DNA from: Candidatus Micrarchaeota archaeon | Lineage (GTDB): Archaea > Micrarchaeota > Micrarchaeia > Norongarragalinales > SBBD01 | NCBI GenBank assembly: GCA_016212475.1 | Contig: JACRGC010000005.1 | Span: 157-64,156 of the forward strand | Reading direction: 5' to 3' | Length of the DNA: 64,000 bases | Part shown: one piece after another, positions 24,774 through 47,025 of the stretch | Numbering within the stretch: position 1 is the stretch's first letter | Layout of the letters: each line of letters starts with the position of its first letter | Position numbers and translations under genes: made by a program | Notes under the pieces: model-generated | What the model was told of the DNA's origin: nothing | Databases searched by the model: none | Seen by the model: only the letters and a program-made list of their open reading frames with translations

Positions 24774-24823
24774 GACACCTTTAGGAAACCAAGGTTTCCT
24801 ACTCGTGTCGCCCCTACCTTCCT
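24774..24823. repeat. Conserved structured intergenic element, copy A (stem GACAC/GTGTC enclosing hairpin GGAAACC-AA-GGTTTCC, then GCCCCTACCTTCC)
   Basis: Near-identical to the copies at 45363 and 46977. It lies between rpoB' and rpoA. Confidence 0.6.
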
Positions 24824-24833
24824 TTTTCAAATA

Positions 24834-26651
24834 TTATCCTTTATCCTTCAAGTTTAGTTTGGGGTTGATTCCAATTGATTTCATTTCATCCAACAGCAAT
24901 TTGAATGCATAGCTCATTTCGACTTCTGAAATGGCGGTGCTTTCGCAAATTGGGCAATACGTCTTGTTCTTGAGCTTGTCAAATACTCCGGCGGATCCGC
25001 ATTTGTTGCAGATAAGTTCGGTTGTCTTATCCGAGCTTTCAATCATTCTTTCCTTTAGAAGTGATGATGCCCCAAAGCCAATAAAGCAATCCCGCTCCAT
25101 CTCCCCAAGCCTAAGCCCTCCTTCCCTAGCCCGCCCTTCAGTTGGCTGGTGCGTAAGCATCTGGACTGGCCCTCTGCTCCTTGCATGGATCTTAAGCCCA
25201 ACCAAGTGGTGCAGCCTTTGGTAGTAAATAACTCCTGTGAAAATTTTAGCGCTCATGATCCGTCCGGAATATCCATCGTACAAATATTCATGGCCTGATG
25301 GCTCAAATCCGTATTTTGAAAGGATTGCCTCGTAATCATCCTGCGAATCTCCTGTAAACGAAGTTCCATCCCTGATTGTTCCTTCCATGCAAGCTGCTTT
25401 TCCGCCAAGCATCTCAAGAAGATGCCCAGCAGTCATCCTTCCAGGGATTGCATGCGGGTTTATGATCAGATCCGGAACAACTCCTTGCTTTGTAAATGGC
25501 ATATCCTCCTGGTTGACTAAAAGCGCAACAATTCCCTTTTGCCCATACCTTGATGAGAACTTATCGCCAATTTCTGGAATGTTTGTTTTTCTAACCCTAA
25601 CCTTGACGAATCTGTTTCCGGCAATGCTTTCGGAAACCATGACGGAATCAACTATCCCATCCTCGTTGCTTCGAACTGTAACCGAGCTTTCCCTTCTTTT
25701 TTCAACCTCGACATCAAGAGCTGAAATTTCCTTCAAAAATCTTGGAGGGGATGTTTTTCCAATCAAAACTGAATCGCCAGGAACGTATACTTCAGGTGAA
25801 ATTAATCCATCAGTTTCAATGTTTTGGTAGGTTTCTTCGCCCAAATATCCCTGCACATACTCCGGAGGCACTTCAAACTTGTCCTTTTGCCCGCCAGGGT
25901 ACCTGCGCTCTTCTGCGTTGTAGGTTCTAAAGAATGCGCTTCTGCCAAGCGTCCTATCAACTGCCTGCTTGTTTATGATGATCGCATCGTTCATGTTAAA
26001 GCCGTAGTAGCTAAGAACTGCGACAACGAAATTTTGGCCTGCTGCGCGCTTGTAATTTTGGAGGTTTTCGTAAATCCTTGTTTGGACAAGGGGCCGCTGC
26101 GGGTAAAATAAAACGTAACCTCTTGTTTCACCGCGGAGGTTGAAATTAGCAGTGTAAAGACCAAGTGCTTGCTTTGCGTGCTGGGATGCCATCAAAACCC
26201 TTGGAGCCATGTTATGTTCAAGGAATGGGATTTGGTTTGAAACATACCCAAGCATTCCAATTACATCTACTTCCATATGGGTGTGAAGTGGCGTTAGATC
26301 CTCTTCTTTTAGTGCAACAAGCGCGTTTTCCTCTTCTTCGGCATCCAAATAATCAATCAAGCCTTTAGAAACCAAATCCTTGAATTGGATTTGGCCGTTC
26401 CTAAGTTTTTCGATGTGCTCTGGAAGGATTGCGCATTTCCCATTCTTTACAACGATTAATGGCCTTCGCGCCCTGCCTTCGTCGGTGTTTATGAATAATT
26501 CATTGGTTTTTTCGTAAAAAGAAACGTTTGTTTGCTGGTCGATTTCGCCCTTCCTTCGCTTGTCGCGGATTTCATCTGCAAGCTTTCCGCCATTTTCATG
26601 GAAACCAACAAACCTTCCATTCAAAAAAATTGAGCTTTTCATAATTATCAC
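24834..26651 (-). CDS. rpoB1: RNA polymerase subunit B' (C-terminal half of B; Rpo2C)
   Basis: 605 aa ending in the zinc ribbon CNKCGS..CPICES. Contains GDKFSSRYGQKG and other Rpb2 C-terminal motifs. Confidence 0.9.
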   Translation of the reverse strand: MIIMKSSIFLNGRFVGFHENGGKLADEIRDKRRKGEIDQQTNVSFYEKTNELFINTDEGRARRPLIVVKNGKCAILPEHIEKLRNGQIQFKDLVSKGLIDYLDAEEEENALVALKEEDLTPLHTHMEVDVIGMLGYVSNQIPFLEHNMAPRVLMASQHAKQALGLYTANFNLRGETRGYVLFYPQRPLVQTRIYENLQNYKRAAGQNFVVAVLSYYGFNMNDAIIINKQAVDRTLGRSAFFRTYNAEERRYPGGQKDKFEVPPEYVQGYLGEETYQNIETDGLISPEVYVPGDSVLIGKTSPPRFLKEISALDVEVEKRRESSVTVRSNEDGIVDSVMVSESIAGNRFVKVRVRKTNIPEIGDKFSSRYGQKGIVALLVNQEDMPFTKQGVVPDLIINPHAIPGRMTAGHLLEMLGGKAACMEGTIRDGTSFTGDSQDDYEAILSKYGFEPSGHEYLYDGYSGRIMSAKIFTGVIYYQRLHHLVGLKIHARSRGPVQMLTHQPTEGRAREGGLRLGEMERDCFIGFGASSLLKERMIESSDKTTELICNKCGSAGVFDKLKNKTYCPICESTAISEVEMSYAFKLLLDEMKSIGINPKLNLKDKG

Positions 26652-26658
26652 AAAAAAT

Positions 26659-45496: not shown

Positions 45497-45505
45497 TTAA
45501 TAAAG
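45497..45505 (+). promoter_or_regulatory. TATA-like box (TTTAATAAA) ~30 nt upstream of the Lon-like gene ATG
   Basis: A/T box at the expected archaeal spacing. Confidence 0.3.
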
Positions 45506-45532
45506 TTGATTTGGTAAGTTGTGCGTTAAGAA

Positions 45533-46978
45533 ATGAAAAGCGAAATCAAGTACGAAAACATCAAAACCACGGAAAGCATCCCCATTCCAAACGATCCCTT
45601 AGAGCAGGTAATTGGGCAGGATGAAGCGGTGAAAATTGCAAAACTGGCAGCCAGGCAAAAGAGGCATTTGCTTCTTGTTGGGCCGCCAGGGATTGGAAAA
45701 TCACTCCTTGCTCAAAGCATAGCATTCCATTTGATCAAGCCAACCCAGGAAATTTCCGTTCTTCACAACCCCGAAAATCCAGAGCGGCCAATTGTTGAAA
45801 TCAAAACATCCGAAATACTAGCAAAGGAAAAGACTTTGGAAAAGCAGCTGGCTGGAAAAATCGTGGATCCAAAGGATGTGCCTTCATTCGTTGCTGAAAA
45901 ACTTGGGTTTAGATGCAGAAAATGCAACTATTTGAGCAAGCCACAGGAAAATTCCTGCCCAAGCTGCGGAACTGAAAAATTCAAGAAGGAATACTCGCCA
46001 TTTGGTGATTTGATCTCGGATTATTTTGCAATTCAAAAAGCGGATAGGGTGCACACCACCAAAATGAACGATGGGGGAAGGGAGGAAATCATAGTTTATG
46101 AAAAATACGGCGAAAAAATACGCGTGCTCGACCAAAAATCACTTGAAAAAATTGACGAGATAAAGCAGCAAAAGCCAAGGAAAATACTCATTCCATCAAG
46201 CCGGAAGAATTTCATAATTGCTACAGGAGCTTCTGAAACCGAACTGCTAGGGGACATACGCCACGACCCATACGGCGGCCATCAGCAGCTTGGCACGCAG
46301 CCATATTCAAGGGTAGTTGCAGGAGCAATCCACGAAGCGCATGAAGGGGTTTTGTTCATTGATGAACTTGGGGCGCTAAGCTATTTGCAAAGGTTTCTTT
46401 TTACAGCGATGCAGGAGCGCAAATACTCAATTGTTGGAAGGAACCCCCAATCTTCCGGAGCTTCCGTTAAGGTAGATTCAGTTCCTTGCGATTTCATTTT
46501 GATTGCTGCAAGCAACATCAACGACCTTCATTTTGTGCTCCCTCCGCTAAGATCCCGGATTATCGGCAATGGCTACGAAGTGCTTTTGGATACGCATATG
46601 CCAGATACGGAAACCAACAGGGGAAAGATGTTCCAGTTCATTGCGCAGGAAATTAGGAAGGATGGAAAGATCCCGCATGCTACGCTTGAAGCTGCGCACG
46701 AGATAATCGAGGAATCAAAAAGACGGGCAAAACTTAACGATGATGCGCCAGATGCCCTAACGCTTAGGCTTAGGGATTTAAGCGGCGCAATTCGGCTTGC
46801 TGGCGATATTGCAATTGATGAGGGCGCGCCTTACATTACACCTGAATTTGTCAAGCTAGCAATTCGGAAGAACCGCAACATTGAAGAGCAATTGAAGGAA
46901 AAATACGGAAGCGTCTGGAGGGCGAATGCATCCGAACTATCAAGGCCTGAAAAGCGGGATTATAAGGAAATCAACTGA
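45533..46978 (+). CDS. LonB-like AAA+ ATPase lacking a protease domain, with a zinc-ribbon insertion
   Basis: N-terminus ..EQVIGQDEAVKIAKLAARQKRHLLLVGPPGIGKSLLAQ.. matches the archaeal LonB AAA+ module. Walker B LFIDELGAL. Insert CRKCNYLSKPQENSCPSCG. No S16 Ser-Lys protease region (no GPSAG-like motif) in the 481 aa. Confidence 0.6.
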   Translation: MKSEIKYENIKTTESIPIPNDPLEQVIGQDEAVKIAKLAARQKRHLLLVGPPGIGKSLLAQSIAFHLIKPTQEISVLHNPENPERPIVEIKTSEILAKEKTLEKQLAGKIVDPKDVPSFVAEKLGFRCRKCNYLSKPQENSCPSCGTEKFKKEYSPFGDLISDYFAIQKADRVHTTKMNDGGREEIIVYEKYGEKIRVLDQKSLEKIDEIKQQKPRKILIPSSRKNFIIATGASETELLGDIRHDPYGGHQQLGTQPYSRVVAGAIHEAHEGVLFIDELGALSYLQRFLFTAMQERKYSIVGRNPQSSGASVKVDSVPCDFILIAASNINDLHFVLPPLRSRIIGNGYEVLLDTHMPDTETNRGKMFQFIAQEIRKDGKIPHATLEAAHEIIEESKRRAKLNDDAPDALTLRLRDLSGAIRLAGDIAIDEGAPYITPEFVKLAIRKNRNIEEQLKEKYGSVWRANASELSRPEKRDYKEIN

Positions 46979-47025
46979 CACCTATAGGAAACCTAGGTTT
47001 CCCACTCGTGTCGCCTCTCCCTTCC
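46977..47025. repeat. Conserved structured intergenic element, copy C
   Basis: GACACC-TATAG-GAAACC-TA-GGTTTCC-CACTC-GTGTC-GCCTCTCCCTTCC. Starts on the Lon-like gene stop codon. Confidence 0.6.

Follow-up and report, generated by a model that had tools for sequence, protein, structure and literature searches.

To our knowledge, the systems formed by repetitive extragenic palindromes (REPs) and RAYT proteins have been described essentially in bacteria. RAYTs (TnpA_REP) are Y1 HUH transposases that mobilize REPs; in such systems a genome carries many REP copies, mostly extragenic, and a single cognate RAYT gene with repeats on its flanks (a REPtron). The insertion of IS200/IS605 elements leaves no target duplication, and Rickettsia palindromic elements (RPEs) are in-frame insertions that undergo translation within the host reading frame. 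The genomes of DPANN archaea are tiny and streamlined, and are regarded as poor in repetitive DNA. REPs are characterized by a hairpin-bulge-hairpin fold, sub-families of stem variants, G·T pairs on one strand, a GTAG tag, a placement after stop codons and a patchy abundance (PMC3733652, PMC6006769); the formal rules place GTAG or GTGG 0-2 nt 5' of the hairpin foot and require a basal stem of at least 7 paired nucleotides (PMC6006769). This text describes a small palindromic repeat found in three copies in a 64-kb stretch of a Candidatus Micrarchaeota genome (assembly GCA_016212475.1, contig JACRGC010000005.1, positions 157 to 64,156 of the forward strand), hereafter called the window. Judged by analogy, the nearest known systems would be the bacterial REPs and the subterminal hairpins of IS200/IS605. 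The element is probably a non-autonomous, REP-like mobile palindromic repeat that spreads via a single-stranded intermediate. What is new here, as the best supported reading, is a repeat of the REP or MITE type (miniature inverted-repeat transposable element) in DPANN archaea, with one unexplained feature, the flanking direct repeats that preserve an encoded peptide.

The three copies of the window, called A, B and C, lie at the places and in the shared orientation claimed in an earlier note made from the letters of the DNA alone; TGACACC leads on the plus strand in all of them. Their parts, with the scores of two covariance models (R2 and R3) and with HP1 and HP2 for the two extra hairpins of the long form, are as follows.

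24773..24822, minus strand: copy A, short form, 69 bits with model R2; the order on the minus strand is purine tail GGAAGGTAGGGGC, hairpin, GGTGTCA
24774..24809, minus strand: hairpin of A, with the outer stem pairing 24774-24778 and 24805-24809 and the inner stem pairing 24783-24790 and 24793-24800
24823..24833, minus strand: 11-nt spacer from the rpoB' stop codon to the tail of A, TATTTGAAAAA on the minus strand
45362..45457, minus strand: copy B, long form, 96 nt, 94 bits with model R3; the order is tail, HP1, CTCAG, HP2, core hairpin
45362..45399, minus strand: core hairpin of B, inner stem AGGGAACC/GGTTCCCT
45403..45417, minus strand: HP2, extra hairpin of B, CAGAC/GTCTG
45423..45442, minus strand: HP1, extra hairpin of B, CCGCA...TGCGG
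45443..45457, minus strand: purine tail of B, GGAGGGTAGGGGCGA on the minus strand, a member of the tail family detected by the repeat finder
46976..47025, minus strand: copy C, short form

Copies A and C, ~50 nt long, are 90% identical over 51 nt according to the repeat finder, which also places the three tails in one family; a 34-nt degenerate pattern matches both copies where shuffled sequences give an expectation of 0.00. They are built from an outer stem GACAC/GTGTC, internal loops measured at 4-5 nt, an inner stem of 7-8 bp and the tail GCCCCTACCTTCC, an architecture of inner palindromic hairpin, loops and 3' tail that the earlier note had recognized correctly. The outer stem that it attributed to all three copies holds for A and C; on the plus strand of B it is interrupted by an A·C mismatch (GACAC/GTGCC), and it is fully paired in this copy on the minus strand only (GGCAC/GUGUC, with one G·U). 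The inner stem of B shows the compensatory change described in that note, A-T to G-C on both sides, which is a genuine double change preserving the pairing. Likewise, the 45-nt insert of B does fold into two additional hairpins, and the same insert module is present in two other genomes, at L065 and L071 (loci of relatives are designated by L numbers throughout). The fold z-scores range from -2.6 to -4.6 for A and C; for B, a value of -3.1 is obtained on the minus strand only, the plus strand giving -1.8.

All known copies are extragenic and their flanking genes have no common function. Copy A begins 11 nt past the rpoB' stop codon (24834-24836, minus strand), inside the rpoB'-rpoA operon. Copy C, read on the minus strand, begins 8 nt past the stop codon of a 91-aa gene, and its first three bases are the TGA stop of a convergent 481-aa AAA/Lon-like gene. 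Copy B lies between the divergent starts of a 2103-aa gene and the 481-aa gene and abuts the TTAAAAAAG TATA-like box of the former. These settings agree with those first described. Copy B is interrupted by the end of a Logan contig that comes from the strain of the window, as usually happens to repeats in assembly; the element is in this way able to break metagenome assemblies.

Homologues of its RpoB' and AAA/Lon-like proteins assign the window to Candidatus Micrarchaeota. Outside the window, nine more copies were found in five related metagenome-assembled genomes (MAGs) or contigs, bringing the known total to 12. Pattern scans of genome and metagenome collections gave three true homologues, L006 (a Micrarchaeota MAG), L019 (an "archaeon" MAG) and L030 (Hainich groundwater). 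Of the 26 loci matched in genome contigs, 24 are GC-rich bacterial chance matches; of the 37 metagenome loci, 36 are chance matches; and the true homologues of these scans occur only in Micrarchaeota or other archaeal contigs. Both patterns fixed the motif CTCGTG, so that variants of the L065 type were missed and the family is under-sampled. Six more copies came from the neighbourhoods of the RpoB' and AAA orthologues in relatives (~200 kb), among them L065-1 (long form), L065-2, L071-1 (long form), L077 and L079, the last two belonging to the MAG of L006. A further long-form copy of L065 (~7836-7935), degenerate and reversed, was found by eye only. A covariance-model search, as the earlier note proposed, was run with models derived from the copies, R2 and R3 among them, over ~275 kb in all and returned no further copy in the window and additional ones in relatives: 3 copies are counted in the 64 kb of the window, 2-3 in 22 kb of L065 and 3 in 44 kb of GCA_043803465.1, with none in 43 kb of GCA_041305345.1 (L064, L072) and five other contigs (~106 kb together). 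The density in positive genomes is ~1 copy per 7-21 kb. At L006 (6790-6843, plus strand), the purine tail alone is repeated twice more just upstream of the full element (AGGGTGAGGGGCGGAA, then AGGGGGAGGCGGCGACAA), which suggests slippage or abortive insertions at the tail.

Searches in other collections were uniformly negative. Viral contigs scanned with two patterns gave chance matches only, blastn with copy B found no match among PLSDB plasmids and INPHARED phages, and translations of the element, used as queries to catch open reading frames called across the copies, returned nothing from the protein database. The element belongs to no recognized RNA family, as had been suspected: at the gathering score, the only Rfam 15 match in the window is a tRNA at 52782-52890, away from the copies, and at E<=10 the best local match is a chance hit to mir-929 (20 bits against a threshold of 56 bits). 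ARAGORN gives no indication of a tRNA-like origin. The tRNA at 52782-52890 (plus strand, 109 nt, 44.9 bits), missed by ARAGORN in bacterial mode, is itself probably an intron-containing archaeal tRNA. As part of the mobile-repeat reading, the family is best seen as lineage-restricted, small and non-coding, and probably confined to one Candidatus Micrarchaeota clade.

The comparison of all these copies defines a unit which, on its purine-rich strand, consists of a 13-16-nt G/A-rich tail usually containing GTAG (in 8 of 11 copies, 4 nt away from the foot of the hairpin), an outer stem of 5 bp, an internal loop of 4-5 x 4-5 nt, a 6-8-bp inner stem and a terminal (G)GTGTCA; the long form inserts two further hairpins between tail and outer stem. 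The outer stem is invariant over ten copies. The inner stem, by comparison, exists in nine different sequences and is always paired (for instance GGAAACC/GGTTTCC, GGGAACC/GGTTCCC, GGGGGA/TCCCCC, GGGGAA/TTCCCC and GGGGT/ACCCT). When the compensatory substitutions are counted, five of its seven pairs prove to have changed on both sides and 96.7% of the cells are paired, a degree of covariation reached by 0 of 500 shuffles; the pairing is lost when the partners are slid. In the three long forms, HP1 and HP2 covary as well. The earlier note argued for selection on secondary structure, and conservation of the structure is supported by the inner helix and the extra hairpins alike. In addition, all seven wobble pairs, the non-Watson-Crick pairs that are allowed, are G·U or G·T on the purine-tail strand, and none is on the other strand. 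This asymmetry implies that the hairpin, if it matters, forms in a single strand of this polarity, RNA or DNA, rather than as a duplex palindrome. Finally, copies of one genome resemble one another more (90% identity for A and C, 84% for A and B) than do copies occupying the same site in different genomes (62-69% for those at rpoB').

Several features are shared with REPs. The element is a short extragenic imperfect palindrome with a 36-nt core (21-65 nt in REPs) and a hairpin-bulge-hairpin fold; its sub-families differ by alternative complementary stem residues, with G·T pairs on one strand; a conserved unpaired tag with GTAG stands on one side, opposite a short conserved motif; the copies frequently come directly after stop codons, and their abundance is patchy between related genomes. 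It differs by its archaeal host, its long purine tail, its modest copy number so far and the 21-51-nt duplications flanking it at gene ends, and no RAYT gene is seen in the window or among the genes tabulated for ~200 kb of relatives. The formal REP rules are also failed, since GTAG is 4 nt from the foot instead of 0-2 and the basal stem has 5 bp instead of at least 7.

Evidence for mobility comes first from orthologous sites, at which copies are gained or lost between close relatives. The 3' end of rpoB' is filled in the window, L065 and L077 and empty in L066, L064, L076 and L078; the RpoB' of L066 is 99% identical in amino acids and 89.5% in nucleotides to that of the window. The three copies at this site join the gene at three different positions, which points either to repeated insertion into one 15-nt stretch or to overwriting by paralogues. 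The site of copy B is empty in all four relatives checked (L068, L069, L071 and L072). Copy C occupies the exact place of purE (AIRC, 153 aa), a gene missing from the window (region 46978-47034) and located in the same four relatives between the AAA/Lon-like gene and an 85-94-aa gene; C stands at the point of the deletion. A fourth site, on the 5' side of a Zn-ribbon gene, is filled with the same junctions in L079 (short form) and L071 (long form), and is empty in L072 and in the window, where it reads as follows.

49850..49871, plus strand: empty Zn-ribbon site, with the native leader GGAGGTAGATTATA and the start codon (TTG) of the 61-aa gene

In L079 and L071, the 3' end of the element (GGTGGTGTCA) lies directly against the TTG start codon, where it has taken the place of the native GGAGGT leader; between the two loci, a G-C pair of the hairpin has become U-A. 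The gene itself (window 49869-50054, plus strand) encodes a conserved 61-aa Zn-ribbon protein with four CxxC motifs; the mechanical list of open reading frames holds only one on the opposite strand there, and the 61-aa gene is called in L072 and L079.

A second line of evidence is provided by direct repeats flanking the element. They are significant at 4 of 11 copies (A, L019, L065-1 and L077; 0-2 of 500 shuffles), which are exactly the copies that follow a co-directional gene end. The repeats measure 21 nt at A, 21 nt (identical) at L019, 27 nt at L077 and 36 nt, perhaps 51 nt, at L065-1. Those of copy A are the following.

24834..24854, minus strand: upstream flanking repeat, AACTTGAAGGATAAAGGATAA, the last six rpoB' codons and the stop, peptide NLKDKG*
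24753..24773, minus strand: downstream flanking repeat, AATCTTAAGGATAAAGGCTAA, the same peptide with four synonymous differences

The upstream repeat is the working gene end, separated from the purine tail by a variable spacer of 11-32 nt, and the downstream repeat starts right after GTGTCA and runs into ancestral intergenic DNA; at copy A it is contiguous with the intergenic DNA of the empty site of L066. The rpoB' repeat pairs show 3-4 differences per lineage and identical peptides (AGA vs CGG, TTG vs CTT, TGA vs TAA), which would happen by chance with p <= 6e-6 if one copy drifted freely, and the non-coding continuation of the L065 repeat is far more diverged. Read-through is ruled out as the cause of this preservation by the distances between repeat copies, 81, 88 and 161 nt. 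The candidate explanations are conversion between the two copies, another functional allele as the source of one copy, brought by recombination or by an element-borne mimic of the target, or the use of both copies.

Given that relatives differ in whether an orthologous site carries the element, and with duplications flanking four copies, the miniature mobile element is the best supported of the options listed in the earlier note; the flanking repeats, the strand asymmetry and the presence/absence variation extend what that note contained. According to the reading as a mobile palindromic repeat, the element would be copied through a single-stranded intermediate of its purine strand, DNA or RNA, with the hairpin as the recognition feature. 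Insertion would be replicative, and a strand-switch or target-primed event is more plausible than cut-and-paste by a DDE enzyme, in view of the length and variability of the target duplications. As one of their junctions is precise and the other variable, these duplications seem, by inference, nearer to strand-switching or target priming than to any known prokaryotic transposition. The enzyme would be supplied in trans, and a Y1 HUH transposase is one candidate, since >65% of Micrarchaeota genomes reportedly contain IS200/IS605 elements (PMC13343696). The consequences for the host would be side effects, such as a Shine-Dalgarno-like leader at the Zn-ribbon gene or the displaced sequence beside the TATA box at copy B.

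Several observations weigh against this reading. No transposase, integrase or reverse transcriptase is present among the window proteins or in the gene tables of ~200 kb of relatives, and the same search found neither a Y1 transposase nor a RAYT. The element has no terminal inverted repeats and no target duplication of fixed length; its flanking repeats are detectable at no more than 4 of 11 copies; the known copies number just 12, with ~275 kb scanned by covariance model. The wobble asymmetry corresponds to ~5 independent events (p about 0.02-0.06). A simple target-site duplication gives no reason to expect the peptide preserved in the downstream rpoB' repeat. Lastly, the G-C to U-A change at the Zn-ribbon site points to a hairpin maintained in place, which would be superfluous for a dead selfish insertion. 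Among the window's genes, a single nuclease-like one is of unclear role; it encodes a 269-aa protein with a DUF559/Vsr-like/REase_MTES_1575 endonuclease domain (4477-5286, minus strand), and no link between it and the repeat was found.

The other mobile families can be ranged around the element in the same way as REPs. With the ends of IS200/IS605 and palindrome-associated transposable elements (PATEs), it shares a strand-specific hairpin, likely the recognition feature, and one precise boundary (GTGTCA). It is unlike them in having a single hairpin module without distinct left and right ends and no conserved target tetra- or pentanucleotide (11 left flanks inspected); unlike IS200/IS605 in particular, it has target duplications, and neither tnpA nor tnpB is near any copy. 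The MITEs of the Correia/NEMIS, Sulfolobus and haloarchaeal types are equally small, non-coding and non-autonomous, polymorphic for insertion and able to bring or displace expression signals. The rules of this class are failed, however, for want of terminal inverted repeats and a fixed duplication: here the inverted repeat is internal, the tail is one-sided, and the flanking duplication is of 21, 21, 27 or 36-51 nt, with none detectable at the other seven copies, where MITEs have a short, fixed one. Like RPEs, the element is a palindromic repeat with no known mobilizing enzyme, tolerated in or beside essential genes of a reduced genome, but a stop codon precedes each copy, the element remains outside the reading frame after this regenerated stop, and the repeat distances of 81, 88 and 161 nt share no frame. 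Set against a SINE-like retroposon (short interspersed nuclear element), it presents duplications that vary in length, a junction that is precise at GTGTCA and, on the tail side, a spacer that is variable; no reverse transcriptase gene was found in the window or in the relatives' gene tables.

If the mobile-repeat reading is correct, the element would be a REP-like system outside Bacteria, and a proliferating, structure-dependent repeat in the RNA polymerase operon would mean that selfish or semi-domesticated DNA still turns over in DPANN genomes. Long target duplications with peptide-preserving differences fit no standard transposition chemistry and may open the way to a new insertion mechanism. 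As to the Shine-Dalgarno-like ends, they would offer a repeat a direct route to rewire translation signals, as in the leader of the Zn-ribbon gene.

The rival that survives best, although it is clearly less probable, is that the element is a cis-acting mRNA structure, either a stabilizer of 3' ends or a hairpin sequestering the Shine-Dalgarno-like GGAGGUG, which is kept for the benefit of the host and whose mobility is incidental. The helices do covary, G·U pairs occur only on the mRNA sense strand of A, C, L019, L065-1 and L077, and the purine strand is Shine-Dalgarno-like at both ends. The Zn-ribbon site fits as well, with the end of the element at the TTG start in L079 and L071, the native GGAGGT replaced, and the compensatory change between orthologous positions. 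A host function of this kind is possible for some copies. As a general explanation, it is opposed by the lack of a common function among flanking genes, by the close relatives that do well without the element at the same sites, and by at least four copies, namely B, L006, L065-2 and the degenerate, reversed one of L065, which are situated in divergent promoter regions ahead of the facing gene's TATA box and at which the purine strand has no evident promoter. The L030 copy also precedes a TATA-like box, but an open reading frame of the same strand runs into it.

A more speculative possibility, which we hold to be doubtful, is that of a guided or target-primed hairpin that is harmless by design: it would insert into the final codons of essential genes, rpoB' for example, and restore the gene end as a duplicate of 21-51 nt, both duplicates being used and therefore under codon-level selection. 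Their use could be achieved by frequent precise excision and re-integration across the repeats, or by removal of the element at the RNA level. Such a system would be a new arrangement between mobile element and host in archaea, and possibly the first archaeal small element mobilized by retroposition or strand-switching.

The flanking repeats have also been considered as the attL/attR-like cores of an integrating element, the hairpin being its attachment module or scar carrying a mimic of the 3' end of the target gene, with the two repeats taken from different functional alleles. Their length (21-51 nt), their position over gene 3' ends, their purely synonymous differences, as if each came from a working gene, and the occupation of the same gene end in three lineages all agree with this idea. 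It is nevertheless unlikely: merely 60-125 nt separate the repeats, no integrase is nearby, the same hairpin is found at unrelated sites without repeats, and there is no match in the viral contigs (two patterns) or the phage and plasmid collections (copy B as query).

Still less credence can be given to a duplex DNA site for a dimeric regulator or for a chromatin or insulator protein beside promoters, even if the core is a near-perfect 36-bp palindrome and the element ends 0-15 nt from a TATA-like box at B, L006, L030 and L065-2. The inner-stem sequence varies within one genome while its pairing is kept, the wobble asymmetry is unexpected for duplex recognition, and the conserved tail is one-sided. 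Moreover, a run of 8 A/T within 30 nt is found at 5 of 11 copies against ~0.27 expected per site by a hand estimate, according to which the proximity to TATA boxes is not above the background of AT-rich spacers; a targeting of TATA boxes by the element was rejected on the same ground.

The least probable of the rivals is an independent small RNA gene on the plus strand, with anti-Shine-Dalgarno-like CACCUCC and CCCUCC, or a bidirectional terminator: the pyrimidine strand does begin with UGACACCUCC and end with CCYUCC, often with a T-rich run within 15 nt after it and with TATA-like boxes 10-20 nt upstream, but these boxes, being target DNA outside the repeat, would place the transcription start within the hairpin, the wobbles favour the other strand, no Rfam family matches, none of the window copies (A, B, C) is called as a hairpin-plus-T-run terminator, and A is internal to the rpoB'-rpoA operon. 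The small RNA lacks a promoter of its own. Since transcribed and untranscribed settings are occupied alike and the inner stem differs within one genome, neither the free-standing RNA nor the sequence-specific protein site suggested in the earlier note is supported, and its terminator fails.

The remaining candidates can be dismissed briefly. The GGC-GAC-ACG-AGT frame of the element is open; it continues that of the upstream gene in A, C and L019 and extends through L030. Against a protein-coding role, L065 and L077 have it out of frame, and the TrmB domain of L030 starts after the element. Translational bypass, as in T4 gene 60 or the yeast mitochondrial byps, finds its Gly-stop followed by a hairpin; the Gly codons, however, differ in two of three lineages, and the landing site is followed only by a stop codon, not by a continuing coding sequence. 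The flanks are direct repeats and not complementary, unlike those of a bulge-helix-bulge (BHB) intron; an integron attC site is excluded by the lack of R-box motifs and of a cassette array; the similarity to the 16S rRNA 3' end is short and due to chance; and microhomology at the right-hand junction (0-2 nt) is too weak.

Some observations concern the surroundings of the copies. RpoA is encoded by one gene in the window (21308-24697, minus strand; 1129 aa, Rpb1 domains 1-5, hence A' and A'' together), RpoB is divided between two genes for B'' (489 aa) and B' (605 aa), and this layout is the same in all relatives. In L065, the rpoB''-rpoB' spacer (9790-10001) is AT-rich and unusually long, with 210 nt as against 7 nt in the window, and neither model finds a copy there. 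At least three PIN-domain genes with small partner open reading frames, resembling toxin-antitoxin pairs, adjoin the polymerase operon of L065 (16405-19071), and the syntenic region of L069 carries HEPN/NTP_transf_2 and ParE genes. Two giant proteins of 1993 aa (32054-38035, minus strand) and 2103 aa (39014-45325, minus strand), with CarboxypepD_reg, Big_1 and SpaA-like domains, are syntenic in relatives yet evolve fast there; they are probably located at the cell surface. Unrelated short GC-rich palindromes stand in the orthologous divergent promoter region of L068 (7260-7300, CCAAAGGG/CCCCTTGG) and L071 (9870-9890, TTTGGGGCCCAAA), and small hairpins of other families may be common in such spacers.

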